DNA of 64,000 nucleotides from Acidobacteriota bacterium (GTDB lineage Bacteria > Acidobacteriota > Terriglobia > Terriglobales > Acidobacteriaceae), in the NCBI GenBank assembly GCA_003225535.1, contig QIAL01000213.1, forward strand, positions 1,111 to 65,110, given 5' to 3'. Of the stretch, positions 4,484 through 32,798 are shown piece after piece (position 1 is the stretch's first letter; each line of letters starts with the position of its first letter). Below the pieces are notes generated by a model that saw only the letters and a program-made list of their open reading frames with translations, was not told the origin of the DNA and did no database searches. Made by a program: the position numbers and the translations under genes.

Positions 4484-4499
4484 CTTGCCAAGCGCCTCC

Positions 4500-5891: not shown

Positions 5892-5895
5892 ATGG

Positions 5896-9054: not shown

Positions 9055-9057
9055 GGC

Positions 9058-12142: not shown

Positions 12143-12289
12143 AATAGCTTGGCCCTAATGCCTGTTCTTCTTCCGCCGAACGCGTCTGCTGCCAGATTAA
12201 GAGTTTTTCGTTTTTGAACGCGCTTCGGACTAGCAGATTTGACAGTCCGCTCCTGGCCATCCCGCGTCGTAAACTTCACATCGTAACGC

Positions 12290-14110
12290 GTGCAGTGTCA
12301 CATGACATTCGTCTCGAGAATTCTAGTGCTGTCACAGCAAGTCCTGTCCCAGGAGTCGTTGGCGGCGCAACTGCGAAGGGGTTTGCGGCGCATAGGAAGA
12401 GCCAGAGCAGCTTGTGCCCTCCTGAGTATCTTCATTGTCACATGCGCGGCAGGTTCCGACGACGGAAAGGAAAAGAGTTCGGTAGAAGGCGCAAGTGCTG
12501 CGATCGAGAATACCGGGACACCGGTGGAAGTCGATGGAAGACCAATCCTATTAGTATATGCACCGATTGGAGGGTTCACTCCGCAAGAACGGGCCGAGGC
12601 TATTGGGCAACGAATCATCTCTCTAGGTAAGAACAGGATCATTCAGGTCGAATCGATTCATGCAGAAGATCGAGGGACCTGGACCGAGATTCTCGCTGGC
12701 AAAGATCGTATTATGGGCATCACCCAGGCCGACGCGATGGGAGCGGAGCGGGCACGAGCAGATCTCGCAGCTGAGTACGCAGAAATTATTCGGCAAGTAG
12801 TGGTCCAGTACCGGGTGGATCACACACTAAGGCACTTGATCTGGGGAACGATGTACGCGATCTTGGCAACCGCCGCGTGTCTGGCTCTGATCGTTGGACT
12901 CTTTTGGTTTCGCAAGAGGTTCCGGAAGCGACTCGAGGCGAGGCTCATTCAGGGAGGGCCAGCCCAGATCAAAGGAGTGCGAATCGGACACTATCTTGGA
13001 CCCCCATTGCTAATGATTATTCACGCGGCGTTCTGGATTGTGCTCTTGGCCATGCTCCAGGCCTACGGTACGGTAGTCCTTCGCTTCTTCCCGTCGACGA
13101 AATACACGTCTTCCCAAGTCACCAACTGGCTCTTCTCGGAGTTGGCGGCTCTGGGGAAGAACGTGATTGCTTACACGCCGAATCTGATCCTCCTCGCCTT
13201 TGTCTGCCTGATCACGTCGTATCTCATGAAAGTGAACCAGTATTTCTTTGGGGAACTGCGGGACGGAAAGATCAGCATCCGCGGGTTTTATCCCGATTGG
13301 GCGGAACCCACGGCAAACCTGGTCAGAACTTTAATCCTGGTGGCGTCTGTGATTATTGCGTTCCCCTACTTGCCCGGATCGCAGAGTCCCGCATTCAAGA
13401 GCATTTCGGTATTCATTGGCGTTCTCTTGTCACTCGGTTCGACCTCGGCCGTCGCCCACGGAGTTGCAGGGACAATTCTTACGTACATGCGTGCTTTTCA
13501 GGTCGGCGATTTCGTTCGTATAGGGAGTGATGTCGGAGAAGTGATTGAGAAGACCTTACTCGTGACGCGCATATGCACGCAAAAAAACGAAGTCGTCACA
13601 ATACCCAACGGCACCGTGCTCGGTGGCGTCGTTGTGAACTATAGTGCGGAGGCGCGAAAACTTGGGGTGATTTTCCATACGGTCGCGACAATTGGTTACA
13701 GTGCTCCGTGGCGACAAGTTCACGACTTGCTGATTTCTGCCGCTCTTGCGACTCGGGATGTCTTACATGACCCTCCGCCGTTCGTTCTGCAAACTGCACT
13801 GAACGATTTTTATGTCTCCTATGAACTCAATGCCTATACAGCAAAACCGCGAAACATGCTGAATATCTATTCTGATTTGCACCAAAACATACAGGACAAA
13901 TTCAACGAAGCTGGGGTAGAAATAAATTCACCGCATTACGCCTCTCTGCGGGATGGGAATGAGACCACGATTCCGCAGAGCTATCTTTCTAGAGAGTACA
14001 GACGCCCGGCTTTTGAGGTTCGCCAGGTCGACCGCTCATCAACCCCTGTTTCAAGTGATGCGGAAGGGAAGAAGGTCGACAGCGCGGTTCAAGATTATGA
14101 AGCTGTCTGA
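12290..14110 (+). CDS. mechanosensitive ion channel (MscS family) protein
   Basis: 606-aa ORF with several TM helices followed by the MscS pore and beta-domain block (FQVGDFVRIGSDVGEVIEKTLLVTRICTQKNEVVTIPNGTVLGGVVVNYS). Confidence 0.85.
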   Translation: MQCHMTFVSRILVLSQQVLSQESLAAQLRRGLRRIGRARAACALLSIFIVTCAAGSDDGKEKSSVEGASAAIENTGTPVEVDGRPILLVYAPIGGFTPQERAEAIGQRIISLGKNRIIQVESIHAEDRGTWTEILAGKDRIMGITQADAMGAERARADLAAEYAEIIRQVVVQYRVDHTLRHLIWGTMYAILATAACLALIVGLFWFRKRFRKRLEARLIQGGPAQIKGVRIGHYLGPPLLMIIHAAFWIVLLAMLQAYGTVVLRFFPSTKYTSSQVTNWLFSELAALGKNVIAYTPNLILLAFVCLITSYLMKVNQYFFGELRDGKISIRGFYPDWAEPTANLVRTLILVASVIIAFPYLPGSQSPAFKSISVFIGVLLSLGSTSAVAHGVAGTILTYMRAFQVGDFVRIGSDVGEVIEKTLLVTRICTQKNEVVTIPNGTVLGGVVVNYSAEARKLGVIFHTVATIGYSAPWRQVHDLLISAALATRDVLHDPPPFVLQTALNDFYVSYELNAYTAKPRNMLNIYSDLHQNIQDKFNEAGVEINSPHYASLRDGNETTIPQSYLSREYRRPAFEVRQVDRSSTPVSSDAEGKKVDSAVQDYEAV

Positions 14111-14500
14111 TATTGGGGTCTGTCTAACTCACCTGCCTTCAAACTGTGACCATTGACAGTGGGCATGGTCATTCTTCGAATGTAACATCACATCGACACG
14201 CGGCAGCAAGTCATTGGAGTGCGGCATGGGCGGCGACACCAGAACGACTGGATTGCGACGCATTCTGCACCTGGTTTGGGAAATCATCTTCCCTTACGAA
14301 ATTCGTTGGGGAACGGAGGAGGAAGCACCTACACCTCACGTGACAGCACACGACTTCTCGAATCAGAAAATAGGTGCATCCACTAAGTCTCCGCCGACCT
14401 AGCCCTAAAAAACAGCGCAGCAACTGGACACTATTCTGACGAGTCTGTTCCGCACTCCTCAGATTCTCGGCGCTAGGAGCCAACGCTTGGAGGGCGGGCA

Positions 14501-14668
14501 ATGAGAATCGCCAAAGCTATTTGCGCGATGGCCGTATTTGTCGGTGTAGCACTTACCAGCACCGGAATCGTTGAATTCTTCAGTGCAAGGCAGACGGCGA
14601 TGCCGATGGTTGCGTTAATAACGGTGTCGCGGTTCGGCGTGTGCTTGCTGGAATCGCTTGGTTGTTAA
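14501..14668 (+). CDS. hypothetical small membrane protein (55 aa), not in ORF track
   Basis: Hand-translated: MRIAKAICAMAVFVGVALTSTGIVEFFSARQTAMPMVALITVSRFGVCLLESLGC. GGAGG lies 7 nt upstream of the ATG. Two hydrophobic segments. The 3' end overlaps the tail of the convergent crp-like ORF. Confidence 0.35.
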   Translation: MRIAKAICAMAVFVGVALTSTGIVEFFSARQTAMPMVALITVSRFGVCLLESLGC

Positions 14669-15541
14669 TAGATATCCCCGAGCACTTGGCAAAGATCGTC
14701 GCATTTCCACGCGATCCGGATATGCGCCGGAACACGCAGAGTTCATCCCGAGAGGAACCCGCCCTCCAGAGTCGTTTCTGAATAGTCGTTCCGGACGGCA
14801 CAGCACAAGCTTTCCGCGGCTCTTTTGGATTGAGCCATTGCGTTGCCACTCGCTAAGCAGCCGGCTGACGGTAAAGGGAGTTATGTTTGCTGTATTGGCC
14901 AATTGCTCGTTGGTGATTTCGAGCCCGATTCCGTGCGGAACGCTCTGACCGATTCCGCGAGACAAGCCAATGAGCACATGAGCAAGTCGTTCGCGTGCGC
15001 TGTGACAAACAAGGCTTAGGTGAGTCGCAAGGTACCAGACAAGGTAGTCACATGCAATGGACAATCCGTTTTCCAGTAAGCGGGGGTATCGCCTGGCGAA
15101 TCCCCGAATTGTGTCGCGTTCCCACACAAGCACTTCGCTATTTGTAGTGACCTCAGTGCTTACAATGAACGGAGCAGGATCGGACAGTAGACAGGCACCG
15201 CCGAATATGTGGCCGCGTACGAGGCAGAATAGATTTACTTTTCGTCCCTCGGGCGTGATGAAGAAGTGTCGAGCATAGCCTTTCCGCAAAAGGAACAATC
15301 TATCCGCAGAGTCGCCTTGCTCTACGACGACCGAGTTCCTCCGATACGTGTGGCGCTGAGCAGACTGCAGGACAGCATACCTCCCGGCACTTGATAGTCC
15401 GTCCAAGAACCGCGCGTTATGCAGAACGGGATCTGAGCGATCCGTAGGGGGGATTCCCGGATGGTTAGACGAAAAGTCATGTGGCGGCCGGAGCGATGCT
15501 CCCGACTCCGATTCTGCGTCCGAATCTACTGCACGGTCCAC
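14615..15541 (-). CDS. Crp/Fnr-family transcriptional regulator
   Basis: cNMP-binding-like beta-roll (VVVEQGDSADRLFLLRKGYARHFFITPEGRKVNLF) plus C-terminal HTH (ITNEQLANTANITPFTVSRLLSEWQRNGSI). There is no N-terminal Fnr-type Cys cluster. The tail after the HTH is unusually long, about 60 aa. Confidence 0.85.
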   Translation of the reverse strand: MDRAVDSDAESESGASLRPPHDFSSNHPGIPPTDRSDPVLHNARFLDGLSSAGRYAVLQSAQRHTYRRNSVVVEQGDSADRLFLLRKGYARHFFITPEGRKVNLFCLVRGHIFGGACLLSDPAPFIVSTEVTTNSEVLVWERDTIRGFARRYPRLLENGLSIACDYLVWYLATHLSLVCHSARERLAHVLIGLSRGIGQSVPHGIGLEITNEQLANTANITPFTVSRLLSEWQRNGSIQKSRGKLVLCRPERLFRNDSGGRVPLGMNSACSGAYPDRVEMRRSLPSARGYLLTTKRFQQAHAEPRHRY

Positions 15542-15568
15542 TTGCTCTCCTCCAAACTCACAACACGA

Positions 15569-16414
15569 TCAGTAAGCATTAAGTCCTTGCGAACGAAACT
15601 GTTCACGCGCCATCGCGATGATCTCAGGAGGTGGTGGCTGAACTCCCTGCAACTTGTAGTTCAGCTTTAGCTCCTTCCACTTGAATTCGCCCAGTTGATG
15701 GAACGGGAGAATATCGACTCGTTCAACGTTGCCGAGTTCAGCGGCGAATTTTGCCAGGGGGGCGATGTCCAGAGGGTTGTCGGTGAGATCGGGTACGAGC
15801 ACGTAGCGCAGCCAAACCGGCTTGTGACGGGAAGCCAAACGGCGTGCGAAGTCGAGCACAGGACGAACTTCCATTCGAGTAAGGCGCTCGTGCACTTCAG
15901 GGTTCCAGCACTTGATGTCAAGCAGCACGAGACTGATGGTGTCCAACTCCGCATCGCTCAGGCGGTTGCCCAGGCTGCCGTTTGTGTCTAAAGCCGTATG
16001 AATACCCATTGTGCGAGCGGCCGCGAACAACTTCACGGCGAAACGGTCCTGCATAAGGGGCTCGCCACCGCTCAAGGTGAAGCCCCCGGACATTACCTTC
16101 AACCCATGTCGATATTTGCGTAACTCTTCCGTCGCTCTTTCGAGCGTCACTGGGATCCCGTGGTCCAGATTCCAGGTGTCGGGGTTGTGGCAGTAAAGAC
16201 AGCGAAACTGGCAACCGGTTGTCCAAGCGACGACTCGAACGCCGGGGCCGTCGACGGCCGAACCAGTTGTGAATGAATGCAGGAACCCCATCTCTCCAGT
16301 AGCGAGTGCCTCACGCACATCGGACTCGGGAACCGTTTGTCCCCAATTGCCGCGGAGTTCAAACGGGCTTTCGGCGTGAAGCGGCGGATACTGCAATGGC
16401 TTCGTGGCATTCAT
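15569..16414 (-). CDS. pflA: pyruvate formate-lyase activating enzyme (radical SAM)
   Basis: 281-aa ORF with the CQFRCLYCHNPDTW radical-SAM CX3CX2C motif characteristic of PFL-AE. It lies 5 nt downstream of pflB. Confidence 0.9.
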   Translation of the reverse strand: MNATKPLQYPPLHAESPFELRGNWGQTVPESDVREALATGEMGFLHSFTTGSAVDGPGVRVVAWTTGCQFRCLYCHNPDTWNLDHGIPVTLERATEELRKYRHGLKVMSGGFTLSGGEPLMQDRFAVKLFAAARTMGIHTALDTNGSLGNRLSDAELDTISLVLLDIKCWNPEVHERLTRMEVRPVLDFARRLASRHKPVWLRYVLVPDLTDNPLDIAPLAKFAAELGNVERVDILPFHQLGEFKWKELKLNYKLQGVQPPPPEIIAMAREQFRSQGLNAY

Positions 16415-16419
16415 GATGT

Positions 16420-18625
16420 TCAGTTTCCGTGGAAGGTGCGATTAATGACGTCCATTTGCTGTTCACGGGTAAGGCGCACGAAGTTCACCGCATATCCCGA
16501 GACGCGGATTGTAAGTTGCGGGTATTTCTCCGGGTGATCCATCGCGTCCAGCAGCGTCTCGCGATTAAGCACATTCACATTGATGTGATACCCAGTCACG
16601 CCAAAGAAGGCGTCGAGCATGCCTCGTAAATTAGTGATGCGATCCTCCAGAACTCTTCCAAGGCTTTCGGGTATCAACGTGGAGGTGAGCGAGATCCCAT
16701 CGGCGGCATCGCGATAGGGGATCTTGGCGACTGATGCGGCGGAGGCGTGAATGCCGTGCTTGTCCCGCCCGTGCATCGGATTCGCGCCTGGTGCGAAGGG
16801 TTCCCCCTTCCTACGCCCGTCAGGAGTGTTGCCCGTGTTCTTGCCGTAAACCACGTTTGATGTGATCGTCAGAACTGATTGGGTGTGCAGAGCATGTCGA
16901 TATGTTGGGTATTTTCGTAGCTTGTTCATGAAGGTAGTGACGACCCAAGAAGCAAGCTGATCAACTTTATTGTCGTTATTGCCGAATTGAGGGAATTCAC
17001 CGGTCGTCTGATAGTCGGTGATGAGGCCATTGTCGTTGCGCACCACTCTGACCTTTGCGTAGCGGATGGCCGACAGGCTGTCGGCGATGACCGACATCCC
17101 AGCCATTCCGAAAGCCATGGTGCGCATCGGCGCGTAGTCGTGAAGCGCCATTTCGAGGCGTTCGTATGCATATTTGTCATGCATATAATGGATGATATTC
17201 ATGGCATTGACGTAGACACCGGCCAGCCAGTCCATCATCTTCTCGAACTTGCCGATCACGTCATCGAAGTCGAGGAACTCGCCACGAACAGCACCGATCG
17301 CGGGCCCGACCTGTTCACCTGTAAGTTCGTCTCGCCCACCGTTAATCGCATAGAGGAGGCATTTGGCCAGGTTGGCTCGGGCGCCGAAGAACTGCATCTG
17401 TTTTCCCACCAGCATCGGAGAAACACAGCAGGCAATGGCGCCATCGTCGCCCCATTCGCGGCGCATGATCTCGTCGCTCTCAAATTGAATCGAACTGGTC
17501 TCGATTGCTACCTTCGCAGCAAAGCTGCGAAATCCATCAGGCAGCCTCGGCGAATACCAGATTGTCAGATTGGGCTCAGGTGCGGGACCGAGGTTGTACA
17601 GAGTATGAAGGAATCGGTAACTCGTTTTCGTCACTAGTGCTCTTCCATCGTCGCCCATTCCTCCGATCGACTCTGTGACCCAGGTCGGGTCCCCGGCGAA
17701 TAAGTCGTCATATTCCGGTGTGCGTAGAAATCGGACGATTCGTAATTTAATGACGAAGTCGTCAACGATTTCCTGTGCCTGTTCCTCAGTCAAGATCCCT
17801 GCGGCTAGATCGCGCTCGAAGTAGACGTCGAGGAAAGTAGAAGTTCTGCCGAGCGACATGGCGGCTCCGTTTTGCTCCTTTACCGCCGCCAGATAGCCGA
17901 AGTAAAGCCATTGCACAGCCTCGCGGGCATTACGAGCCGGCCCCGAGATGTCAAAGCCGTAGCTCGTTGCCATCTGTTGCAATTCAGTCGAGGCTCTGCC
18001 TTTCCTGCTGCTTCCGATCAATCAGGCGCTTGACTCCGTAGAGAGCGACCCTGCGGTAGTCGCCGATAATGCGGCCCCGGCCGTATGCATCGGGGAGTCC
18101 GGTGAGGATGTGAGAGCTGCGGCACCGTCGTACGTCTGCCGTATAGGCATCGAATACGGCCTCGTTGTGAGTCTTGCGGTACTTCGTAAACGTGTCGACT
18201 ACGTGCGGATCAGGCTCGTAACCATAGGTCTTGAGAGCATTCACGATCATGCGAAAGCCGCCATTGGGCATGATGGCGCGCTTGAGGGGAGCTTCGGTTT
18301 GAAGCCCGAGAATAATCTCATTCTCTTTGTCGATGTATCCAGGCCCGTGCGCCGTGATGGAGCTAGGGATCTGTGAGATATCGAGCACTCCCTTTTTCCG
18401 TTCTTTCAGGAAGAGTTCGTTCAGCTTACCCCATAGCCCTTTGGTCCGCTCGGTGGCAGCCGCAAGAAAAGACTCATCCCCGTCGTAGGGCTTGTAGTTC
18501 TGTTGAATGAAGTCCCGAACGTTGATCTCAGTTTGCCAGAGACCCGTTTCGAATCCGGTCCAAGGAGAGGTCGCCTGTTCAGAAATTGTCGAGTCGATGA
18601 AGGCAGTCGCCATTATAGTTCTCAA
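16420..18625 (-). pseudogene. pflB: pyruvate formate-lyase (formate C-acetyltransferase), interrupted by a frameshift
   Basis: Two ORFs overlap in different frames. ORF 17984..18625 (213 aa) is the PFL N-terminus and ends ...[21 protein letters not shown] 16420..18021 (533 aa) is the remainder from ...[16 protein letters not shown]. It includes the ACCVSP active-site Cys pair and the RVSGYAV glycyl-radical motif. Confidence 0.85.
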
Positions 18626-18634
18626 TTCTGACCG

Positions 18635-19831
18635 TCATGCGACGGCCTGCAGCAACCCAAGAAGCGCACCAGTGTGCCGTGCGATCATGAGTTCCTCGTT
18701 GGTTGGAATCACCCAAGTGGAGACTTTGCTTTGTAGGGTCGAGATACGGGAACGATTGTTAGAGTTTGCTTGGGTATCCAGTTCGATTCCCAGCCACGAT
18801 GAAGCATCACAGATTCGCTTGCGGATCTCGGGAGAGTTCTCTCCAATGCCGGCCGTGAACACCAGGCCATCGACTCCAGCCAATACTGCGGCGAGAGAGC
18901 CAATTTCCTTTGCTGCCCGGTAGACGAAGTACTGTATCGCCAGCTTGGCATCCGGTTCGCCGGCCGGAAGTAAGTCTCTCATGTCATTGCTGATGCCGGA
19001 GATCGCGAGCAGACCGGATTTCTTGTACAAGATGGTTTCGATTTCCTTCGCCGACAACCCCAGCCCTTGATACAAATACAGAACTACGCCGGGATCCAGC
19101 GCGCCTGGTCGGGTGCCCATGCAGAGTCCATCGAGCGCAGTGAAGCCGAGAGTGCTGTCTATGCTTACCCCGTTTTTCAGGGCACACAAGCTGGCGCCAC
19201 TGCCTAGGTGTGCCACGATGACGCGTTTCCCCGCGATTTCCGGGGCTAGGCCAGGCAGAACCGAAGCTATGTATTCGTAGGACAGGCCGTGGAAGCCGTA
19301 TCGCTGTACGCCTGCCGTTCGAAGATCTTTTGGTAGCGGTATCAGCTTGGCAACAGACGGATAGGTCTGATGAAAGCTGGTGTCGAAGCAAGCAACTTGT
19401 GGGACATCAGGCATCCGCTCGCGGATTCTTTCGATGGCCGCAAGGTTGTAGGGCTGATGGAGTGGGGCAAGAGGAATGAGTTGGTAAAGGTCTACTAGCA
19501 CCTCTCTCGTAATCAGTACTGGCCGATCAAATTTCGCTCCCCCATGCACCACACGGTGACCGACACCTAAGACGCGGGCGTCGCCGTATCTGGAACGAAG
19601 CCAAGATCCTAGTGCGTCGACTGCGGCTCGCCCGTCGCAAACCGTGTCATCTAAGCTCGAGTGCGAAAGAATTCCGCCGAGACTGTCACGTGCCGAGAGT
19701 CGCGGTGAAGTCCCGATGCCATCAATTTGCCCCCGAGATTCCAGTTGCCACGCTCCCTGGTATGGACGCATGAATACGCAGAATTTCAAGCTTGATGATC
19801 CTGAGTTGAGAACAAGCGCGTAGTCATCCAT
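18635..19831 (-). CDS. ackA: acetate kinase
   Basis: 398-aa ORF with the N-terminal LVLNSGSSSLKF motif and acetate/propionate kinase blocks (HRVVHGG, GFHGLSY). Confidence 0.93.
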   Translation of the reverse strand: MDDYALVLNSGSSSLKFCVFMRPYQGAWQLESRGQIDGIGTSPRLSARDSLGGILSHSSLDDTVCDGRAAVDALGSWLRSRYGDARVLGVGHRVVHGGAKFDRPVLITREVLVDLYQLIPLAPLHQPYNLAAIERIRERMPDVPQVACFDTSFHQTYPSVAKLIPLPKDLRTAGVQRYGFHGLSYEYIASVLPGLAPEIAGKRVIVAHLGSGASLCALKNGVSIDSTLGFTALDGLCMGTRPGALDPGVVLYLYQGLGLSAKEIETILYKKSGLLAISGISNDMRDLLPAGEPDAKLAIQYFVYRAAKEIGSLAAVLAGVDGLVFTAGIGENSPEIRKRICDASSWLGIELDTQANSNNRSRISTLQSKVSTWVIPTNEELMIARHTGALLGLLQAVA

Positions 19832-20786
19832 GGATGCTCACTCCTTTCTTTCTGCGAGCGTGTGCTGCGAGCATGGCCACTGCGCAACTGGCAATTCGGG
19901 AACGAACGCTGTCGGCTCGGCTCGTGAGAATGATTGGTACTTTGGCGCCCAGGACTAGGCCAGCGCTGTCAGCATTGGCCAGGAAGGTGAGTTGCTTGGC
20001 AAGAATGTTTCCTGCTTCAAGATCCGGGGCCAGCAGTATGTCCGGATTTCCGGCGACCTCGGAGACAATGCCTTTGGTCTTCGCAGCTTGCTTGCTGATG
20101 GCATTGTCAAATGCCAACGGCCCCTCCAGGTGAGCCCCCTTAACCTGTCCGCGTTCGGCCATCTTGCAAAGGGCTGCAGCATCGATTGTGGCGGGCATCT
20201 TCGACGTCACTGTTTCCACAGCTGCGAGGATGGCGACATTTGGCCACTCGAGACCCAGTGATTCCGCTAGATCAATCGCGTTCTGGCAGATATCGACTTT
20301 GTCTTCTAACGTGGGAGCAATATTGATCGCGCCATCAGTTACGATAAGCACTTTGTGATAGGTAGGAACATCCATCACGAATGCGTGGCTGATCCGGCGC
20401 GCCGTGCGCAGGCCTCCATCTCGAGACACTACGGCACCCATCAACTCGTCGGTATGCAAGCTTCCTTTCATCAGGAGTTCCGCTTTTGCCTCGCGTAGCA
20501 GTTCAACTGCTTTGGCGGCTGAGGCGTGACTATGCGGAGCGTCCACAATTTGAATGTTGCGAAGATCAATCTCTGCCGATTCCGCGATGGCGAGGATCTT
20601 TGGGCGTGGACCGACAAGGATCGGGACGATAAGGCCTTTTTTCCCCGCCTCCACTGCTCCAGATAATGAAGTCTCGTCGCAAGGATGCGCTACTGCCGTG
20701 GGAATGGGCTCAAGGCTTGAGCACCTCATCAGCAGTTGCTCATATTTGCCAGTTCCGGTTTCAGTTTCTTGCATCAGGCTGATCAC
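19824..20786 (-). CDS. pta: phosphate acetyltransferase / PTA_PTB-family phosphotransacylase (short form)
   Basis: 320-aa ORF with PTA_PTB-family blocks (LLMKGSLHTDELM, VTDGAINIAPTLEDK, GPLAFDNA, DLEAGNILAK). It overlaps ackA by 8 nt. Confidence 0.85.
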   Translation of the reverse strand: MISLMQETETGTGKYEQLLMRCSSLEPIPTAVAHPCDETSLSGAVEAGKKGLIVPILVGPRPKILAIAESAEIDLRNIQIVDAPHSHASAAKAVELLREAKAELLMKGSLHTDELMGAVVSRDGGLRTARRISHAFVMDVPTYHKVLIVTDGAINIAPTLEDKVDICQNAIDLAESLGLEWPNVAILAAVETVTSKMPATIDAAALCKMAERGQVKGAHLEGPLAFDNAISKQAAKTKGIVSEVAGNPDILLAPDLEAGNILAKQLTFLANADSAGLVLGAKVPIILTSRADSVRSRIASCAVAMLAAHARRKKGVSIHG

Positions 20787-20788
20787 TG

Positions 20789-22111
20789 TTATGCCTCCCG
20801 GTTAAGTGCTGATAGCGGAAAACGAGCTGCCGTGCCCGTCTCCTTGAGTAAGAAAGTTAGTGCGATAGCGATTGCGACGCCGAATAGAAGAGGTGCGAAT
20901 GCCATCTGGTAGTGCTCCAGTTGCATGGCACCGGATCCGCCCGACAAGTACTGCAGCAGCCATGCGAAAACCGGACCCAGCAGTGCACTGAATGTGAAGT
21001 TCAGGAAGTTGATGACGCCTGTGGCGATCCCGCCGAACTGTGGAGGATTAGCTTCTTTAATGACGGTATACGGGAGCATAGCTGCACCCGAGGCTATTCC
21101 GGCGACAAGGCCGAGGACGTAAGGAGGGAACGCATCCGTGCGGCCGAAGAGAATCAAGGCCAAGCAAGCCAACAACAGAGTCGCAGCACCAATGATGACC
21201 GGCTTGCGCCGTCCAAGCCGATCGGAGATGAAACCTAGTAGTGGACAACCGATAATCCACCCCAGCGGAACCATGGCAGTACGGAGAACCGCTGAAGCGT
21301 AGTCGAAACCATGTGCGTCCTGCAGGTAACGCACGCCCCAAACCATGTCGAAGATCGTTGTGGGAATGAAGATCAGCCCCGCAATCAATCCACACAAAAT
21401 GGATTGAGGGTTCTTGAACACAACGTAGAATCCTTTTGTGACGGACCGTTCCGGATCGGGTTTCTCTGGCTTTTGTTCTTTTGGTAATAGGAGGAAGAGC
21501 AGGCCGGAGATCAGCAATATTAAAATACCCAGTCCTGCCCAACACATGTTCCAAGGCAGGCCCTTGGCGATCAGCGGACCGACAACAAACTGTCCGGCCG
21601 CTCCGCCGGCCATGCCAAACATCTGTGTCGCTCCGATCAGTGTGGCAGCCTGCGAGGGAGGAAAGTATTTTGAGGCGATGTAGATCGCTCCAACGAGCGC
21701 GAAAACTCCCCCTGCGCCCTGCAGCAATCTTCCCACGCTGCCTGCGGTGCTGTTGCCGGTGGCGAACAGCAAGGCGCCCACGCCGGTTACTGCCGCGGCG
21801 ATGGGCACGACCTTGCGGGGCCCTAGCCGGTCCATGCCTGCCCCCGCGATGAGGCTGAAAGGCGAATAGCCGTAATAAAAAAGACCGGCAATCGAGGCCA
21901 CGCTGACCATGTTGATCCCGAATGCGGTCGACAGCTGCGGCATCATCACGGATGGTGCGGAGCGCAGTACGTATTGGAGAAAGTAGTAAACGACGGCCAC
22001 GAGCCAGGCGATCGCAGCAATCTTTACGCTCGGTCGGGTCTCGCGCCCAGCCTCTTCACGCGCGACCACCACGGGCACACGATTACTAACGGCTTTCGGC
22101 TGTGATGCCAT
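20789..22111 (-). CDS. MFS transporter (substrate unknown)
   Basis: 440-aa ORF of about 12 TM helices with an MFS loop motif (GMDRLGPRKV / SDRLGRRKP). Confidence 0.85.
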   Translation of the reverse strand: MASQPKAVSNRVPVVVAREEAGRETRPSVKIAAIAWLVAVVYYFLQYVLRSAPSVMMPQLSTAFGINMVSVASIAGLFYYGYSPFSLIAGAGMDRLGPRKVVPIAAAVTGVGALLFATGNSTAGSVGRLLQGAGGVFALVGAIYIASKYFPPSQAATLIGATQMFGMAGGAAGQFVVGPLIAKGLPWNMCWAGLGILILLISGLLFLLLPKEQKPEKPDPERSVTKGFYVVFKNPQSILCGLIAGLIFIPTTIFDMVWGVRYLQDAHGFDYASAVLRTAMVPLGWIIGCPLLGFISDRLGRRKPVIIGAATLLLACLALILFGRTDAFPPYVLGLVAGIASGAAMLPYTVIKEANPPQFGGIATGVINFLNFTFSALLGPVFAWLLQYLSGGSGAMQLEHYQMAFAPLLFGVAIAIALTFLLKETGTAARFPLSALNREA

Positions 22112-22120: not shown

Positions 22121-23746
22121 CTAGCAGAGCACCAGTGACACCGCTAAGCCGCCTTCGGAAGTTTCCTTGTACTTCGCGTTCATTTCCTTGGCTGTAAGAG
22201 CCATTGCGGAAATGGCAGTATCAAGATCAACTCGGCGCTCTTCCGGTATTTCTTCGCTGGCTATGCAATAGGCAGTCCACGCTTTGACTGCTCCATAGGC
22301 GCAGCGCTCGATACATGGGACCTGCACGTAACCAGCGACAGGGTCGCAAGTCATGCCGAGGTGATGTTCCAGTGCGGACTCGGCAGCGTTGGAGACAACC
22401 TTCGGACTGGCGCCCAGAGTCTGGGCCGCCATCGCTGCACCCATCGAAGATCCGACGCCGACCTCAGCTTGGCAGCCGCCCTCCGCCCCGGACAGGGTAG
22501 CGTTGTGTTTGCACAGGTACCCGATCGCAGCCGCCGCGAGAAAGCCTTCACGAATCTTTTGCTGCGGTGTGTTGAGGTCGTTTAGCGACTTGACGATCGC
22601 TGGGATGATTCCTGCCGAACCCGCTGTGGGTGCGGTTACGATGATGTGGCCTCGGGCATTTTCCTCGCCCATCGCAAAGCCGTAAGAGGCGATCCGCGTG
22701 ACGGCTCGGCCCGCCTCCCCTTTAGAGGATGTTTTCAAGTTGCGCTGCATGGCTGCCGCCTTGCTGTGCAACTTAATAGGTCCCGGTAAAACACTATCCA
22801 CCGTCAATCCTGTGTTCACGCCACGCAGCATGACTTCGGAGACCTGATCCAGAAATTCCCAAATATCTTTCTCGCTCTTGCCGGAAATCGCCATCTCATT
22901 CGCGAGGAGCAGTTTTGGCAGAGGGATCTTGTCGTCGATGAGATACTTCTTCAGTTCCCTGGCATGCTCGTAGGGGTACTTCGGCTGTCCTTTGTCTGGA
23001 GGCTTGTATCCCTTCCACTCGATAAACCCGCCGCCAACCGAGTAGTACTCCAACTCATAGAGTGTTTCGTCTCCGGCCAGGAGCTTCGCCGTCATCGTGT
23101 TCGGATGGTGGAACTCTCCCTTGGTGGCGTCAAAGATGATGTCTTTCAGTGTCAGATTGAGGGTTGACGGACCGATGGTAACTTTATGTGCTTCATCCGG
23201 ATTTGCCGCCAGTGAGTCGAGAAATTCTGGTGGGCACGTCGCGGGAGCCTTGCCCAACAGGCCCGCCAGAGATGCTCTGTCGGTCCCATGACCTTTTCCG
23301 GTTGCGCTGAGACTTCCGTACAGGTGCACTTTGAGTGCCGTGGCTCGCTTGAGCTGGTCATCCGGGAGCTTCGAAACTTTCTGGAAGAAATCGTAGGTGA
23401 TTCTCATCGGCCCCATCGTGTGGGAACTCGACGGCCCCGGTCCCATCTTGTAGAACTCCTCGAGAGTGGTCATCACAGGGCCCTTCGACGATTGGACCAC
23501 ATTGAGCTCCGGAGAAAGGGCGGGCGGTAGAGGGGCAGCGGCTGCCTCTGCGGGCTCCTGTTTGGAGCAACCTGCAAGCACTGCCGCTGCAGAAGCGGCA
23601 AGGGCAGTGTATCCGAATTGGCGACGGCTAAGAACCGCGGGTGCTTCGAGTTTCGGAGCGGCTGGGCTGCAGGTTCCGCATCCGCCCGTACTGCAACTAC
23701 CACACGCTCCTTCGGACTTACCGATTATGTTCAATAACTTATCCAT
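22121..23746 (-). CDS. sdaA: L-serine ammonia-lyase (Fe-S dependent, single chain) with 91-aa N-terminal extension
   Basis: The core from M92 (MTTLEEFYKMGPGPSSSHTMGPMRI...) matches canonical SdaA. The ORF starts at the ATG at 23746, preceded by AAAGGAGAAGGGCG. The extension carries CX2CX4CX2C, SRRQF and LAGC. Confidence 0.9.
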   Translation of the reverse strand: MDKLLNIIGKSEGACGSCSTGGCGTCSPAAPKLEAPAVLSRRQFGYTALAASAAAVLAGCSKQEPAEAAAAPLPPALSPELNVVQSSKGPVMTTLEEFYKMGPGPSSSHTMGPMRITYDFFQKVSKLPDDQLKRATALKVHLYGSLSATGKGHGTDRASLAGLLGKAPATCPPEFLDSLAANPDEAHKVTIGPSTLNLTLKDIIFDATKGEFHHPNTMTAKLLAGDETLYELEYYSVGGGFIEWKGYKPPDKGQPKYPYEHARELKKYLIDDKIPLPKLLLANEMAISGKSEKDIWEFLDQVSEVMLRGVNTGLTVDSVLPGPIKLHSKAAAMQRNLKTSSKGEAGRAVTRIASYGFAMGEENARGHIIVTAPTAGSAGIIPAIVKSLNDLNTPQQKIREGFLAAAAIGYLCKHNATLSGAEGGCQAEVGVGSSMGAAMAAQTLGASPKVVSNAAESALEHHLGMTCDPVAGYVQVPCIERCAYGAVKAWTAYCIASEEIPEERRVDLDTAISAMALTAKEMNAKYKETSEGGLAVSLVLC

Positions 23747-23987
23747 CGCCCTTCTCCTTTTCCAGGACTGCTATGTCTTTCAGTCCGGATTGGTTGTCTG
23801 CCCTCCCGCCTTCAGAAATAAAGGCAGGCTCATGCCCGTGACCTTCACGTGGGGGAGTGTCGAATACCGCGTGGCTGGTGAGAACTGTCATTTGTGTCAG
23901 GAGTAGAGTGTTTAGGGCAGGTTAAGAGCTGAATGCGAGTGCTTACCAGCAGCAGGAATCGCGCCTTACCGGCAAATGCCGGGCATT

Positions 23988-25391
23988 TCAGAATGTGAAT
24001 CCCTTCTTCCAGTCGTATTTGAACGAGAACTGAAGGCGAGAATCATTCACGTTGAATCCGTCACTAAAATTGACGCGCCTGCCGTAGATGAATTCTCCAC
24101 CTACCATCACGCTCGGGACCGGGTGGTAGAGAAGATTTGTGAGTGCGTAATGACCCTGGTGATAATCGCTCGCAGTCTCGGCGTTAGAGTTCGAGATGTT
24201 CACGAGCGAATATCCAATCGAACTGCTGAAGTGGCTATTCCAGTTGTGGTCGAGGAATGTAACGACGCCCAAGACCGGCAGGGGGACACCTACGATCGGC
24301 TTGTTCGGATTGGACAGATTGTTCTTCACGCCAACATCGATCGGGGCATCGTTCATGTAGTTCTCAACGCCATCACCGTAGACCACTGCAAAACGTCCGA
24401 CATCCTTCTTGGTAAAGTTGATATTTGAAGTCACATTGATGCCCCATCCGAGAGCATCGCCGCCGAGATCGACCGGTGGGTTAGGAGCGGTATTAACCCA
24501 TGAAATCTTTCGAAATATTCCGGCGACTTGCACGTGTCCCCAAGGGCGCATCACACGGACTTGCCAGGAAAAATCAGGCATGTCGAACTTGGGTTTGACT
24601 CCCTGCAACTCTACGCGGTCGGCATAGATGCCACCGTCGGCGCTGGCACCCGGCCGCTCCGCGGCGAAGATGAGGCGCAAGCGGTCATTCTGGATCGGAG
24701 CCCATCGGGCCTGCACATTTCGGAAGAAGACCATTCCGTTTGGTCCCCAATACTCGACAGAGTTGGGGAACACATCAATGTCCATGAACGGGCTCCAAGT
24801 TTGGCCGGCGCCAAAATGCCCTAACTCACCGTAGGCATGACGCAAGCGGAACGTTGTCTGTCCCTGGTCGACTCCGGTTCCGAACAGTTCGAATTCGAAG
24901 ATGGTGTTGAGATTACCCAGGCTTGTTGGAGTCGAGGTCTTCACTCCAAACCGCGTCTGACGGACGCTGAAGTAAGCCTTCCCGTCCGGCGCAAATTGGC
25001 CCTTGAACGATGCCAGTTTGGTCGGCCGCATCACATCGAACCAATTCGGATCGCTCTGCCCGAATTCATAGCCGGAATCCATCATGACGTGACCGTAGAG
25101 ATCGATACTGCTCTTTTTCTCCTCCCTCGGTGCCGCGGGTGTCTCCTGCGCCTCTTCAGTCGCCCTAACGATGACGGTGGTCTTGGGAGCGGCGGGTGCG
25201 GGGGCCTGTTGGACGTTGTTTATCTGTGCCTTGAGTTCTTGCATCTCCTGCTCTAATTGCTGGAGCTTGGCTTTCATCTGCTGCAGGTCCTGGTCCTGGG
25301 ACTGACCTTGTGCCCAAGTGACAAGAAAGAAGATCGCGACCAAGATTGCGCACACAGTTCTAATGCTATGAATATAGGAATTCGATTTCAT
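23988..25391 (-). CDS. outer-membrane porin with N-terminal coiled coil (DcaP/BBP2-like)
   Basis: The ORF track gives 23988..25499. I prefer the ATG at 25391 (MKSNSYIHSIRTVCAILVAIFFLVTWAQG = signal peptide). This is followed by a coiled coil (QDLQQMKAKLQQLEQEMQELKAQINNVQ) and a long beta-strand-pattern region ending ...KYDWKKGFTF. Confidence 0.75.
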   Translation of the reverse strand: MKSNSYIHSIRTVCAILVAIFFLVTWAQGQSQDQDLQQMKAKLQQLEQEMQELKAQINNVQQAPAPAAPKTTVIVRATEEAQETPAAPREEKKSSIDLYGHVMMDSGYEFGQSDPNWFDVMRPTKLASFKGQFAPDGKAYFSVRQTRFGVKTSTPTSLGNLNTIFEFELFGTGVDQGQTTFRLRHAYGELGHFGAGQTWSPFMDIDVFPNSVEYWGPNGMVFFRNVQARWAPIQNDRLRLIFAAERPGASADGGIYADRVELQGVKPKFDMPDFSWQVRVMRPWGHVQVAGIFRKISWVNTAPNPPVDLGGDALGWGINVTSNINFTKKDVGRFAVVYGDGVENYMNDAPIDVGVKNNLSNPNKPIVGVPLPVLGVVTFLDHNWNSHFSSSIGYSLVNISNSNAETASDYHQGHYALTNLLYHPVPSVMVGGEFIYGRRVNFSDGFNVNDSRLQFSFKYDWKKGFTF

Positions 25392-25853
25392 GCGAGCCTC
25401 TGCAAGAAAAATTCTCAGACCGACGCTGGATCGGAAACTGGCATTTGTGCCAGTGAGAGCGTCCAGCCTGGTCCAATGAATTCGGATTGAATGCGACAAT
25501 CCGACACCGGAGGCTTCTTCCGGGCAGGCTTTCCATTGCTAGTCAAACGGCAACTTAGTGACTGTGCGATTTGTTCGCATCAGGCCCAGATCGGTACACG
25601 ACAACGAATGGGGCGACATTCTCAATTGCCACCTTTCCTAAAGCAGCGATCTTGATTGCCTATTGCTGCTTTTGGGCCGCCCAATGTTCGCCAATCGAAA
25701 GGATGGCGTGGTGATGATTGAGGTCGTAGTGTTGTGGCCACTGGTAGAACCGAAGCCACCGCACAAATCCGACTGTTGCCAGCTGTAATCTCTGCCAGTA
25801 CTGGAGACGGCGTATGCCTTCTACGATCGTGGATGTTGACTGAGTCGCTCGGG

Positions 25854-28247
25854 ATGCGAACCGACTTTCGGCTTACCTCAATTTCGATAATTATCCTGGC
25901 CGTGTATTGTCCCGCGTCCGCGCTGCCGCCGCAGGATTCTCTACCCGATGCTCCCTCATACACTCGCGGAATGCAGGATGCAAAGTCAGCGCCGAGCAGG
26001 GCTATTCAGAATGAAAAGAAGGCGCCCGACGCTCCTTGGCCGCGTGAACTTGATCGCGGCGATGAAAAGATCTTCATGTACCAACCGCAGCTCGAGAGCT
26101 GGAAAGATGATGAGATTCGCGCTTATGCGGCGCTCTCTGTCGTAAAGGGCAAAGATAAAGACAAAGCAACAAAGTACGGTGTGGTCTGGTTTACCGCAAA
26201 GACTGAGGTCGACAAGGTGAACCGTCAAGTCACTCTAGATGATTTCCAGATCACCAGGCTGCAGTTTCCTACCATGAAGGAGCGAGAGAATGAGTTTAGA
26301 TCGCTACTTCAGGCCAAGCTTCCCGGAAAGACCAGAGTCGTTGCACTTGATCGATTACAAGCTGCGTTGATTGCCAACCAATCGGTGGACTCTCCTATCA
26401 GGGCTCTTCCAGTTAACAATGATCCTCCTGAGCTCATCTTCTCGACAAAACCTGCAGTACTTGTCCTGATCGATGGCCCGCCCAAGTTCCGCGACGTGGG
26501 AGGAACCCGCCTACAGTTGGTTCTGAACACTAAGTCAACCATTCTCCTGGACAACGAGGGCAGCAAATACTTCCTGAATGTACTCGACGGATGGATGGAG
26601 GCGGCAAGTTTAGAAGCTACTTGGTCGTTCGCATCCAAGATACCGGCAGACATGAAGGAAATCACGAAGGGCATTCAGGAGCGACAGAAGGCTCGAGCGC
26701 CGGAAGGAACCACGCCGCCTTCGCTGAAGCAGGCGAACAAAGAAGGAAAGCTTCCTGCGATTTACGTCAGGATGGCACCGGCAGAACTATTGACCACCGA
26801 AGGTGCGCCTCAATTTGAGCCGTTGCCACAAGCAAATTTTGAATATGTTAAGAACACGAGCGCTAACGTCTTTCGCGATCCCGCGAATTCAGAGTTTTAC
26901 GTCCTTGTATCGGGACGCTGGTTCAAGTCGGAATCCTTAGCGAACGGATCATGGGTGTTTGTAGACGGTAAAAGCTTGCCGGCCGGCTTCTCCAACATAC
27001 CTGAAAGCAGTCCCAAAGCGGGCGTTCTGGCATCCATACCAGGCACAGCGCCGGCCAAAGAAGCCCTGATCGCGAACTCCATACCCCAAACCGCCACAAT
27101 CACCCGCGTGGAAGCTCAACTGGATGTCAAATACGACGGAGATCCTCAGTTCAAGAGCATTACCGGTACAGAGTTGCAATATGCTGTGAATACCGCGACT
27201 CCAGTCATCAGGGTTGATGAGAAGAATTACTACTCACTCGAAAACGCGGTGTGGTTTCGAGCAACAGCCCCGCTTGGACCGTGGGAGGTCGCAACATCCG
27301 TTCCCGAATCAATTTACTCCATACCAACCGATGCACCATTGCATTTCGTCACGTATGTAAAGGTGTACCGTTCTACGCCGGAGGTGGTTTACGTGGGCTA
27401 CACTCCGGGCTACTACGGGAGCGTCGTTTCTTCCACAACCATGACGGTTGTCTATGGGACAGGCTTCTACTATCCGCCCTACATCGGATCCTACTGGTAT
27501 GGAGCACCCTATACGTACGGAGTGGGTGTTGCTTCCACTTGGAGTTCGGGAACGGGCTGGAGTCTCACGATCGGCGTGGGTTACAGCTACGGTTATGGAT
27601 ATCCTTATTATTACTACCCCTGGTGGGGACCCTGGGGTTACTACGGGTCTTGTTGTTGGGGGCCGGCCTGGGGGTATGGCTGGGGTGGATATGCCAGTAC
27701 CAATGTGTACGGACGCTGGGGAAACACGGCCTACGCCAACACACAAGCCGCATGGGCTAATCCCTACACCGGAAACTACGGAGCCGCAAGCAGAACGGCA
27801 TTTCAAAACACGCAGCGCGGCACAGTGGGAGTCGCTGGTCGAGGAAGTAATACGAATATCTATACTGGGAATACGGTCGCTGGGCGTGGTGCTGCCGCCT
27901 ATGATCCGAAAACGGGGATTGTGGCCGGTGCCGGCGCAGGATACGCCGGAAATATTTACAGCGGAGAAGGCGCGGCTGGACGTGGAGGGTTCGCCTACAA
28001 CACTAACACTGGCTCTGGAGTCGCAGTAGGTGGCAACAACGTCTATGCTGGAAAAGATGGGAGCGTGTACCGGTATAACCGCCAGAGCGGCAACTGGTCC
28101 CAGAATACGGGTAGTGGATGGGAGTCAACAAACAGGCCTCAGGCTGATCTGAACCGTCAGCAACAAGCGCGCACTTCAGGCCAGATGCGCACCCAGAACT
28201 TCAGTGGTTCGATGGGCCGCGGCATGGGCGGGGGACGCAGAAGGTAA
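25854..28247 (+). CDS. large secreted protein with Gly/Tyr/Trp-rich low-complexity C-terminus
   Basis: The ORF track gives 25734..28247. A signal-peptide-like start is at 25854 (MRTDFRLTSISIIILAVYCPASA). The globular N-terminal roughly 520 aa belong to no family I recognise. The C-terminal roughly 280 aa are rich in Y/G/W/N (YGYGYPYYYYPWWGPWGYYGSCCWGPAWGYGWGGY...). Confidence 0.8.
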   Translation: MRTDFRLTSISIIILAVYCPASALPPQDSLPDAPSYTRGMQDAKSAPSRAIQNEKKAPDAPWPRELDRGDEKIFMYQPQLESWKDDEIRAYAALSVVKGKDKDKATKYGVVWFTAKTEVDKVNRQVTLDDFQITRLQFPTMKERENEFRSLLQAKLPGKTRVVALDRLQAALIANQSVDSPIRALPVNNDPPELIFSTKPAVLVLIDGPPKFRDVGGTRLQLVLNTKSTILLDNEGSKYFLNVLDGWMEAASLEATWSFASKIPADMKEITKGIQERQKARAPEGTTPPSLKQANKEGKLPAIYVRMAPAELLTTEGAPQFEPLPQANFEYVKNTSANVFRDPANSEFYVLVSGRWFKSESLANGSWVFVDGKSLPAGFSNIPESSPKAGVLASIPGTAPAKEALIANSIPQTATITRVEAQLDVKYDGDPQFKSITGTELQYAVNTATPVIRVDEKNYYSLENAVWFRATAPLGPWEVATSVPESIYSIPTDAPLHFVTYVKVYRSTPEVVYVGYTPGYYGSVVSSTTMTVVYGTGFYYPPYIGSYWYGAPYTYGVGVASTWSSGTGWSLTIGVGYSYGYGYPYYYYPWWGPWGYYGSCCWGPAWGYGWGGYASTNVYGRWGNTAYANTQAAWANPYTGNYGAASRTAFQNTQRGTVGVAGRGSNTNIYTGNTVAGRGAAAYDPKTGIVAGAGAGYAGNIYSGEGAAGRGGFAYNTNTGSGVAVGGNNVYAGKDGSVYRYNRQSGNWSQNTGSGWESTNRPQADLNRQQQARTSGQMRTQNFSGSMGRGMGGGRRR

Positions 28248-32237: not shown

Positions 32238-32798
32238 ATGATCAGTCTACGTGTGGAGGGATCTATGAGGCGATATGCAATCTCAGTTTGTTTATGTGCA
32301 GGGATTACTGGCGGGTATGTGGCTACTGCCCAGAATACGCCCCCGGCTGCGACTCAATCACCAGCGCCTTCAGCGGGCTCCCCAGCTGCGAAGGTCGGAC
32401 TCTTTGTTTACCCGCAGAAAAACCAAACGCCCGAACAGCAAACTACAGATGAGGGTGCTTGTTACGCGTCCGCGCAGCAGCAGACTGGGATTGATCCGGC
32501 TGCTCCTCCGCCTGCCCCTAAGGAGGCCGACAAAAAGAAGGGAGGGGCGGTGAAGGGCGCAGCGGGTGGAGCTGCTGGCGGAGCAGCCATTGGAGCGATC
32601 GCTGGTGATGCGGGAGAAGGGGCCGCGATCGGAGCTACGGCGGGTGCGGTCCGGGGCCGTCGCCAACAAAAGAAAGCTAACAAGCAGGCGGAACAGCAAG
32701 CCCAGCAACAGGGACAGGCCCAACAACAGCAGACATTGGATACTTTTCGGCGCGCATTTTCAGCCTGCATAGACTCCAAGGGCTATTCGGTTAAGTAA
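32238..32798 (+). CDS. secreted glycine-zipper protein (paralog A)
   Basis: Signal peptide, Pro/Ala-rich linker, Gly-zipper (GAAGGAAGGAAIGAIAGDAGEGAAIGATAGAV), Gln-rich coil and a conserved C-terminus (FRRAFSACIDSKGYSVK). It is collinear with 42577..43227. Confidence 0.75.
   Translation: MISLRVEGSMRRYAISVCLCAGITGGYVATAQNTPPAATQSPAPSAGSPAAKVGLFVYPQKNQTPEQQTTDEGACYASAQQQTGIDPAAPPPAPKEADKKKGGAVKGAAGGAAGGAAIGAIAGDAGEGAAIGATAGAVRGRRQQKKANKQAEQQAQQQGQAQQQQTLDTFRRAFSACIDSKGYSVK

Follow-up and report, generated by a model that had tools for sequence, protein, structure and literature searches.

In a 64,000-nucleotide (nt) stretch of contig QIAL01000213.1 (the window), from an Acidobacteriota bacterium of the family Acidobacteriaceae, a complete SdaA-type gene was found to encode an L-serine dehydratase whose catalytic core is preceded by a 91-amino-acid (aa) leader. 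The explanation which best accounts for the whole, and which is considered moderately likely, is that the 541-aa product would be the precursor of a periplasmic 4Fe-4S L-serine dehydratase exported through the twin-arginine translocation (Tat) system. The leader combines an invariant four-cysteine (Cys4) knot, a twin-arginine pair (RR) and a lipobox.

In the mechanism proposed, the enzyme would fold and take up its catalytic [4Fe-4S] cluster in the cytoplasm, and an unusually long signal peptide with the RR at residues 41-42 would target the precursor to the Tat translocase. Cleavage and lipidation in this organism would take place at Cys60 (LAGC), the catalytic domain hanging from a membrane by an Ala/Pro tether; in some relatives an Ala-x-Ala-type site instead of the lipobox would give a soluble periplasmic enzyme. 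Serine would enter through the adjacent DcaP-type porin and be deaminated in the periplasm to pyruvate and ammonium. A co-transcribed transporter of the major facilitator superfamily (MFS) would import the pyruvate, which pyruvate formate-lyase (PFL), Pta and AckA would turn into formate, acetate and ATP under anoxia. The knot, lying in the n-region on the cytoplasmic face, would work there and be discarded with the signal peptide, perhaps as a metal or Fe-S export checkpoint or as a docking element, for example one coupling export to Fe-S supply or anoxia. We infer export, lipidation and pyruvate uptake, and throughout the chemistry and role of the knot.

The enzyme and its leader

The 541-aa protein scored 406.6 bits against TIGR00720, above the cut-off of 345.1 for single-chain Fe-S L-serine dehydratases, and contains the Pfam domains SDH_beta (residues 97-245, 5.4e-41) and SDH_alpha (residues 274-535, 2e-66). 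The L-serine dehydratase of Legionella pneumophila (LpLSD, PDB 4RQO) aligned end to end with residues 93-541 (E = 1.3e-83). In this alignment His153 corresponds to the catalytic His61 of LpLSD, the cluster ligands Cys425 (22472-22474), Cys467 (22346-22348) and Cys478 (22313-22315) to Cys343, Cys385 and Cys396, and the C-terminal Cys541 (22124-22126) to the 'tail-in-mouth' Cys458, the roles of the LpLSD residues being those given in PMC12647591. All five columns are invariant or nearly so in the family alignment A2 and, with its catalytic and cluster residues all in place, the enzyme is predicted to be intact. GenBank lists the identical protein as PYX73599.1, 'MAG: L-serine ammonia-lyase [Acidobacteria bacterium]', where MAG stands for metagenome-assembled genome.

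SdaA, SdaB and TdcG of Escherichia coli and the Legionella enzyme have the same beta-plus-alpha architecture, and the clade shares with them its catalytic His, its three cluster ligands and its 'tail-in-mouth' Cys. Unlike the type 2 (single-chain) SdaA enzymes, the clade adds the 91-aa Cys4/RR/lipobox leader and a conserved 16-residue pre-core segment; to our knowledge, all characterised single-chain SdaA proteins start at the catalytic core and are cytoplasmic. The clade core is approximately 38-41% identical to proteobacterial and canonical acidobacterial SdaA (best tblastn segment), and the nearest leaderless relatives, at approximately 48% identity, are those of Desulfovibrionaceae. A substrate other than L-serine could be used, the leader clade being only 38-49% identical to its nearest leaderless relatives. 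A second, canonical leaderless SdaA with a canonical start and 38-39% identity was found in Acidobacteriaceae (L019, L070, L074, L081); by this comparison the leader-bearing gene is a distinct paralogue and not the housekeeping enzyme.

An earlier reading of the window, made from its letters alone (the sequence-only reading), had placed the SdaA core from M92 and a 273-nt extension at 23474-23746. The alignment to 4RQO opens at residue 93, and the coordinates are exactly those of codons 1-91. A strong Shine-Dalgarno (SD) sequence before the ATG was likewise recovered as AAGGAG (23754-23759, 7 nt upstream). The cysteines at 15, 18, 23 and 26, the S-R-R-x-F at 40-44 (read as S-R-R-Q-F), the Ala-rich h-region, the LAGC at 57-60 and the Ala/Pro linker all stand at the residues claimed. 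One distance has to be corrected, as that reading set the knot 40 residues before the Tat motif. The intervals to the RR, whose own position begins at residue 41 (Arg41-Arg42), are 14 residues from the last Cys and 25 from the first. The features are collected in Table 1.

Table 1. Coordinates of the SdaA-type gene, the elements of its leader and the genes of its cluster, in window positions.
Feature	Position	Strand	Basis or remark
Complete SdaA-type gene	22121..23746	minus	541-aa precursor, single-chain 4Fe-4S L-serine dehydratase; 91-aa leader plus tether
Shine-Dalgarno AAGGAG	23754..23759	minus	7 nt 5' of M1 ATG, read from sequence
Residues 1-14, start of n-region	23705..23746	minus	Consensus M-x-K-L-L-x-V-I-G-x-x-x-S-x; M1 invariant, L5 >=90% conserved (alignment A1)
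Four-cysteine knot, residues 15-26, C-G-S-C-S-T-G-G-C-G-T-C	23669..23704	minus	All four Cys invariant
Twin-arginine motif S-R-R-Q-F-G, residues 40-45	23612..23629	minus	RR in 163/163
h-region, residues 46-60, uncharged, Ala/Ser-rich, closing in lipobox	23567..23611	minus	Hydropathy and lipobox conservation
Lipobox L-A-G-C, residues 57-60	23567-23578	minus	L-[TAV]-G-C-[ST] in 110/110 close relatives
Tether, residues 61-76, Ala/Pro/Glu-rich, length varies	23519..23566	minus	Relaxed constraint, in-frame indels
Pre-core segment, residues 77-92, L-S-P-E-L-N-V-V-Q-S-S-K-G-P-V-M	23471..23518	minus	>=90% conserved (alignment A2)
Catalytic core, residues 93-541	22124..23470	minus	Residue-by-residue alignment to PDB 4RQO
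DcaP-type outer-membrane porin, N-terminal coiled coil, upstream gene	23988..25499	minus	Pfam DcaP 3e-24
MFS transporter, downstream gene, 10 nt past SdaA stop	20789..22111	minus	Pfam MFS_1
Pta (phosphotransacetylase)	19824-20786	minus	Pfam
Acetate kinase (AckA)	18635-19831	minus	Pfam
Pyruvate formate-lyase, split by frameshift	16420-18625	minus	Pfam; tblastn with intact L004 PFL
PFL activase	15569-16414	minus	Pfam
Crp/Fnr-family regulator	14615-15541	minus	Pfam

Relatives were collected by a full-length search, which gave at least 120 clusters with 82-96% identity, lengths of 539-550 aa throughout and 100% query coverage, and by a second search seeded with the 75%-identical L006 relative, which added about 55 more divergent members. 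The 170 full-length members gave 163 distinct N-termini, of which the 110 of the close (Terriglobia) clade were analysed apart, and five sequences (the window and L001-L004) were compared at the DNA level. The extension alone, used as query in a word-indexed homologue search, yielded five fragments; this is a sensitivity limit, because the full-length query recovered more than 120 carriers.

The Cys4 motif and the RR were found in all 163 N-termini. The cysteine spacing is 2-4-2 in 157 of them, the other six comprising four parsing artefacts (an extra Cys) and two one-residue indels, and the gap from the last Cys to the RR is 12-14 residues in all 113 N-termini of the first set. In a 40-sequence alignment the sole invariant leader columns are M1, C15, C18, C23, C26, R41, R42, G59 and C60; the positions between the cysteines vary freely across the family, with the knot consensus C-G-x-C-[HSN]-[TS]-[TS]-G-C-G-T-C-[GA]-P. 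The ratio of nonsynonymous to synonymous substitution rates (dN/dS) is 0.1-0.4 for codons 2-61 (pairwise, with dS saturated), 0.07-0.3 for pre-core codons 77-92 and 0.02-0.04 for the core; it is 0.2-1.6 for tether codons 62-76, where indels are in frame. GGAG is found 6-8 nt 5' of M1 in all five DNA sequences. These observations make it almost certain that the leader is real and translated. The sequence-only reading had asked whether homologues start at M92 with nothing conserved upstream, and at least 170 relatives instead carry a conserved leader.

The leader can be read as a Tat signal at several points. Throughout the close clade the residue before the RR is S, T or N and that at +3 is F, L, W, M or I, with Gly at +4 in 108 and K or R at +5 in 47 of the 110, so that the [ST]-R-R-x-F-L-K Tat consensus is followed save for Gly instead of Leu at +4. 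The h-region is short and weakly hydrophobic (12-14 uncharged residues, mean Kyte-Doolittle hydropathy 1.73). The lipobox consensus holds in the whole close clade, and the lipobox Cys in approximately 145 of the 163 N-termini of the wider family; the tether that follows, rich in Ala, Pro, Glu and Thr and variable in length, is as in many lipoproteins. Among profile models, Pfam LPAM_1 reached 13.3 bits on the leader, below its cut-off of 20, and the signal regions of the TrbK and YgdI/YgdR models gave sub-threshold matches (E = 0.006-0.07).

The remaining 18 intact, divergent members keep the Cys4 motif and the RR and have, in place of the lipobox Cys, a basic c-region and an AxA-type site, for example ALPRRGRA/VEA, LLPGRANA/QQK, GSRPAKA/AQQ and LLSGRSNA/SPP (the slash marking the inferred cleavage point). 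Nearly all of these variants show R or K in the c-region; one subclade among the 18 has a member that is labelled Candidatus Binatia (P0236). A basic c-region is a classic 'Sec-avoidance' feature of Tat signals. Two types of signal-peptidase site at the same place behind the same RR form the pattern predicted by a cleavable Tat signal, and the exchange is hard to reconcile with a cytoplasmic role or a permanent membrane anchor. Export of the enzyme by Tat is considered likely, and the Tat and lipobox assignment of the sequence-only reading is supported, as far as sequence can do so, by the invariant RR, the h-region, the 110/110 lipobox and the 18 AxA variants.

Signals of the Tat/signal peptidase II type are one of the five types distinguished by SignalP 6.0 (PMC9287161), and Tat-dependent lipoproteins are known from Streptomyces and haloarchaea (PMC2945643). 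The leader resembles such signals in its twin-arginine n-region, short weakly hydrophobic h-region and lipobox Cys, and differs in an n-region of approximately 40 residues that contains the invariant Cys4 knot. We know of no signal of this type with a metal-binding-type motif.

Several observations weigh against this reading. Neither Pfam TAT_signal (PF10518) nor TIGR01409 matched three family leaders at E <= 10, these models being very short and weak and the HMMER filters dropping most matches with E > 0.1. The motif is RRxFG rather than RRxFLK. The first Arg stands at residue 39-42 in 108 of the 110 close-clade N-termini, and is not near the N-terminus because the Cys4 knot adds length; rule-based Tat predictors look for an RR within approximately the first 35 residues. 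For an enzyme with an O2-labile cluster, a periplasmic location is a disadvantage unless production is confined to anoxia. The AlphaFold2 model of the full protein, built on a 77-sequence low-diversity alignment, has a mean predicted local distance difference test (pLDDT) score of 53.6, with the leader below 50, and is uninformative on the knot.

The neighbourhood contributes further points on the same side. The PFL of the window consists of two overlapping open reading frames (ORFs; 17984-18625 and 16420-18021) with a change of frame and approximately 15 residues absent near 209-225, which is due to a frameshift, a pseudogene or an assembly error. The MFS protein had no PDB relative and fell below every NCBIfam cut-off. 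The FNR/CRP box TTGAT-N4-ATCAA occurs as often as expected by chance and is absent from the interval that separates the porin gene from SdaA. The adjacent Crp-family regulator lacks the FNR-type N-terminal Cys cluster.

The four-cysteine knot

A HMMER search of 1.84e9 representative proteins (50% identity) with a profile built from residues 1-61 gave 49 matches at E <= 1e-3. All 30 that were retrieved are SdaA N-termini (...VVQxSKGPIMTTLEEFYKMGPGPSSSH); the remaining 19, all shorter than 105 aa, were not inspected. Such a search with the extension had been proposed by the sequence-only reading, and it places the extension on SdaA homologues and on no other enzyme among the matches retrieved. 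Many of the matches are frameshifted or internally deleted ORFs, probably since normal members cluster under a leaderless representative. It was also observed that in P0005, P0137, P0160 and P0173 the leader is joined in frame to the last 30-100 SdaA residues (...ETSEGGLAVSLVLC), the middle of the enzyme being absent; these metagenomic ORFs are probably assembly artefacts combined with selection by the 50%-identity clustering.

When the window and 84 fetched loci (1.28 Mb) were searched by regular expression for the Cys4 motif followed by RR, the only convincing leaders were those of SdaA genes. A match in L025 and one on the minus strand of L003 have frames broken by stops or lie in low-complexity sequence, and hits in Aureimonas, Rhizobium and a gammaproteobacterium that cover residues 6-60 were set aside as spurious upstream read-through. 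Among the best 80 loci from GTDB species representatives, at least four (L005-L008) carry the leader. On these searches the Cys4/RR leader is private to one SdaA clade.

The MAGs from which family members derive are labelled Acidobacteriota/Terriglobales, Candidatus Binatia, Bacteroidota, Margulisiibacteriota and Dongiaceae (P0218, P0236, P0274, L006). Such mixed labels would be accounted for by mis-binning or by horizontal transfer of the gene with its leader.

Residues 1-91 and their sub-segments matched no Pfam or NCBIfam family, and the leader profile gave chance-level matches only among PDB sequences, in agreement with the earlier remark that the knot resembles nothing nameable. The sole Fe-S match in the PDB search was the loop GCDTSNCGTC in 8uem_C (E = 2.3, chance level), and Fer2_BFD gave E = 4.3 on the leader. 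Other identities were considered and rejected. A plant-type or xanthine dehydrogenase (XDH)-type [2Fe-2S] or other Fe-S domain was set aside, as the fourth Cys is 2 residues upstream and Fer2 and Fer4 did not match. A c-type haem CxxCH site was discarded with His after the second Cys in only 37 of 110 N-termini, and a cytochrome c555 match in the PDB rests on 'CGSCH' alone. A precursor of a ribosomally synthesised and post-translationally modified peptide (RiPP), of the SCIFF-like kind, was also rejected, since every instance of the motif is fused to SdaA and the sole radical S-adenosylmethionine neighbour is the standard PFL activase.

Cx2Cx4C occurs in the [4Fe-4S] sites of ThiC and Bacillus Fnr, and Cx4Cx2C in plant-type and XDH-type [2Fe-2S] loops. 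The knot holds both arrangements, and its C18-x4-C23-G-T-C26 resembles the 'C-x-x-G-x-C-G-x-C' loop. Unlike the knot, which matches no Fe-S profile, these compact motifs have a distant fourth ligand and a loop within a folded domain. The resemblance in spacing is taken as a lead and not as evidence of family membership, with zinc equally possible. In an AlphaFold2 model of residues 1-62 (pLDDT 59.8, low confidence), the only elements predicted were a hairpin of two residues between C18 and C23 and a helix over residues 41-60. The knot probably binds a metal ion or an Fe-S cluster, because it is invariant and has two CxxC pairs and Gly-rich turns.

Long Tat n-regions are read by substrate-specific proofreading chaperones in the pairs TorA/TorD, DmsA/DmsD, NapA/NapD and HyaA/HyaE. 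The present leader likewise places a conserved, substrate-specific extension before the RR of a cofactor enzyme and may likewise delay export until the enzyme is loaded. Unlike it, n-regions of the TorA/DmsA type have no known Cys motif and use a separately encoded chaperone, usually from the same operon, and none was seen here. It is put forward tentatively that the knot may act in cis as an export checkpoint; a cis checkpoint or docking role is favoured because the knot is private to an enzyme with an O2-labile cluster and no chaperone gene was seen alongside in the nine loci examined.

Another role for the knot would leave export and periplasmic catalysis unchanged. It might serve purely as a zinc knuckle in a structural sense, or a trans-acting chaperone or targeting factor might dock on it, with no sensing involved. 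This alternative, regarded as rather unlikely, would have parallels in the small C-terminal zinc motif of SecA, which binds SecB, and in the dedicated chaperones that bind the n-regions of TorA, DmsA and HyaA. Two CxxC elements in which a Gly follows the first and the third Cys make a typical zinc-knuckle signature, and the restriction of the leader to a single enzyme clade parallels that of dedicated Tat chaperones to a single substrate. The spacing of four residues between the CxxC pairs is, however, far shorter than in known zinc ribbons, and no conserved small chaperone-like gene was found beside SdaA in the nine loci examined.

In a more specific form of the checkpoint proposal, the knot could be an Fe-S site or thiol redox switch on the cytoplasmic face that gates Tat export by Fe-S supply and anoxia. 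This form is judged unlikely; if true, no signal peptide before it would have been shown to bind a cofactor, and Tat proofreading would here take place without a chaperone.

Start site and membrane anchoring

Besides the exported full-length form, the gene might also give a cytoplasmic enzyme by internal initiation at M92. An SD-like AAGGG stands 7 nt 5' of M92 within the conserved S-K-G codons, and the pattern TCG AAG GGY CCN NNN ATG keeps this distance in all five DNA sequences. Met occupies the position in 145 of 163 members, and a 450-aa form is sometimes called by the NCBI and JGI pipelines. On the other hand, L, I, V, T or F replaces M92 in the other 18, and the leaderless homologues of Desulfovibrionaceae start further upstream and keep KGPITTSLF or KAPVTTSLF without the Met. 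The conservation around M92 therefore lies at the protein level. A separate canonical SdaA is, moreover, already present in Acidobacteriaceae, and the production of two isoforms is thought improbable.

The discrepancy between pipelines can be seen in P0235 (L006:7968-9578, labelled Candidatus Margulisiibacteriota), where the NCBI call of 450 aa begins at the M92 equivalent and omits an intact in-frame Cys4/RR leader. Since start calls are inconsistent between pipelines (541 versus 450 aa), localisation predictions for the family are currently unreliable.

A second alternative would accept Tat targeting and deny cleavage, the leader serving as an N-in signal anchor with the Cys4 motif in the cytoplasm and the enzyme tethered on the periplasmic face, as in Tat-inserted Rieske proteins. 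The RR does precede a hydrophobic helix, predicted at 41-60, and a conserved cytoplasmic domain would be more sensible if retained than if cut off. The uncharged stretch of 12-14 residues, plus 3-4, is nevertheless short for a membrane span, and a perfect lipobox in the entire close clade together with AxA sites and basic c-regions in the 18 variants points to cleavage by two signal peptidases. Permanent anchoring is accordingly given very little weight.

The possibility that the extension is an annotation artefact, with M92 the true start of an ordinary cytoplasmic SdaA and 273 nt of non-coding DNA before it, has in its favour that the canonical SdaA N-terminus aligns from residue 93 and that some database entries are 450 aa long; it is already refuted, as far as sequence evidence reaches, and its probability is negligible, given Cys and Arg codons that stay invariant while their neighbours vary, indels that keep the frame, a dN/dS below 1, an SD conserved ahead of M1 and the extension in at least 170 relatives.

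Gene neighbourhood and wider meaning

Export by Tat, the preferred reading, is in keeping with the genes that surround SdaA. Beyond the MFS gene the rest of the cluster spans 14615..20786 on the minus strand. SdaA is likewise preceded by a DcaP gene in L001, L002 and L008; the adjacency of SdaA and MFS, and the order SdaA-MFS-Pta-(Ack)-PFL-activase, recur in L002, L004, L007 and L008; and PFL genes adjoin SdaA in L003, L005 and L006. In L002 the PFL gene is in three pieces. The nearest NCBIfam models to the MFS protein, all below cut-off, are of the organic-anion type (D-galactonate/ACS, lactate SfMCT, oxalate/formate) more than amino-acid transporters.

In L001, a locus of a complete 7.2-Mb acidobacterial genome, the SdaA gene lies in a block (4230-14404) with two DcaP-like coiled-coil porins, a glutaminase with a Sec signal and an acetate kinase, and the same block holds a type II asparaginase with a Sec signal and a signal-bearing Amidohydro_2 protein. 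Taken together, the loci look like an island for periplasmic deamination and deamidation of amino acids followed by acid uptake and fermentation. That the flanking porin and MFS genes fit periplasmic deamination had been suggested by the sequence-only reading, and the conserved synteny, the organic-anion-like MFS and the L001 context agree with it.

Further neighbours were observed in L003 (2552-8306 and 11727-17095), namely DcuA/B, aspartase, RidA, two beta-carbonic anhydrases, a bestrophin-like channel and an Asp-Al_Ex transporter, which suggests that a broader module serves pH handling and the anaerobic metabolism of amino acids and C4 acids.

Elsewhere in the window, an 837-aa ORF diverges from the porin gene (25734-28247, plus strand); it has a signal-like N-terminus, no significant Pfam family and a C-terminal third that is extremely rich in Gly, Tyr and Trp (e.g. 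GYGYPYYYYPWWGPWGYYGSCCWGPAWGYGWGGY). A sortase-domain protein in this Gram-negative-type genome (30782-31633, minus) and two small glycine-zipper (OmpA-like) proteins (32238-32798, plus; 42577-43227, minus) are unrelated to the finding.

Two known systems invite comparison. The tdcABCDEFG operon of E. coli serves anaerobic threonine and serine degradation, with TdcC importing the amino acid and deamination taking place in the cytoplasm. As in tdc, one cluster unites the dehydratase with a transporter, a keto-acid formate-lyase of the PFL type and a phosphotransacylase/kinase step yielding ATP. By the logic of tdc, serine would pass under anoxia by way of pyruvate to acetyl-CoA and formate, and acetyl-CoA by way of acetyl phosphate to acetate with a gain of ATP. 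Unlike in tdc, the dehydratase bears an export signal, the transporter is an organic-anion-type MFS protein and a porin is included. In Helicobacter and Campylobacter, the asparaginase AnsB and gamma-glutamyltranspeptidase carry out periplasmic deamidation that is followed by uptake of the product. The strategy proposed here would be similar, the amino acid being processed outside the cytoplasm and the organic acid imported, and the L001 gene stands beside the Sec-signal glutaminase and asparaginase. Whereas those enzymes are cofactor-free and exported by Sec, the serine dehydratase needs an O2-labile Fe-S cluster and would therefore need Tat.

A search of the literature, of limited coverage and not proof of novelty, found neither a Tat-targeted or periplasmic serine dehydratase nor a Tat n-region with a Cys motif. 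The individual parts are known (SdaA, the Tat signal, the lipobox and a tdc-like pathway); their combination, above all the Cys4 motif within a Tat signal, appears to be undescribed. The clade appears to be widespread in Terriglobia and to occur also in MAGs labelled Binatia.

If confirmed, the finding would add a periplasmic, often lipid-anchored clade to the Fe-S serine dehydratases, which are cytoplasmic by textbook account. How Tat checks cofactor loading in simple Fe-S substrates is an open question, and a Cys4 module in a Tat n-region would, once confirmed, offer a short portable element for testing proofreading in cis. The neighbouring genes for periplasmic glutaminase and asparaginase hint at a wider strategy of deaminating outside and importing the acid, which may be related to acid tolerance. 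Confirmation would also change models of amino-acid fermentation and ammonium release by the Acidobacteriota of soil and peat.

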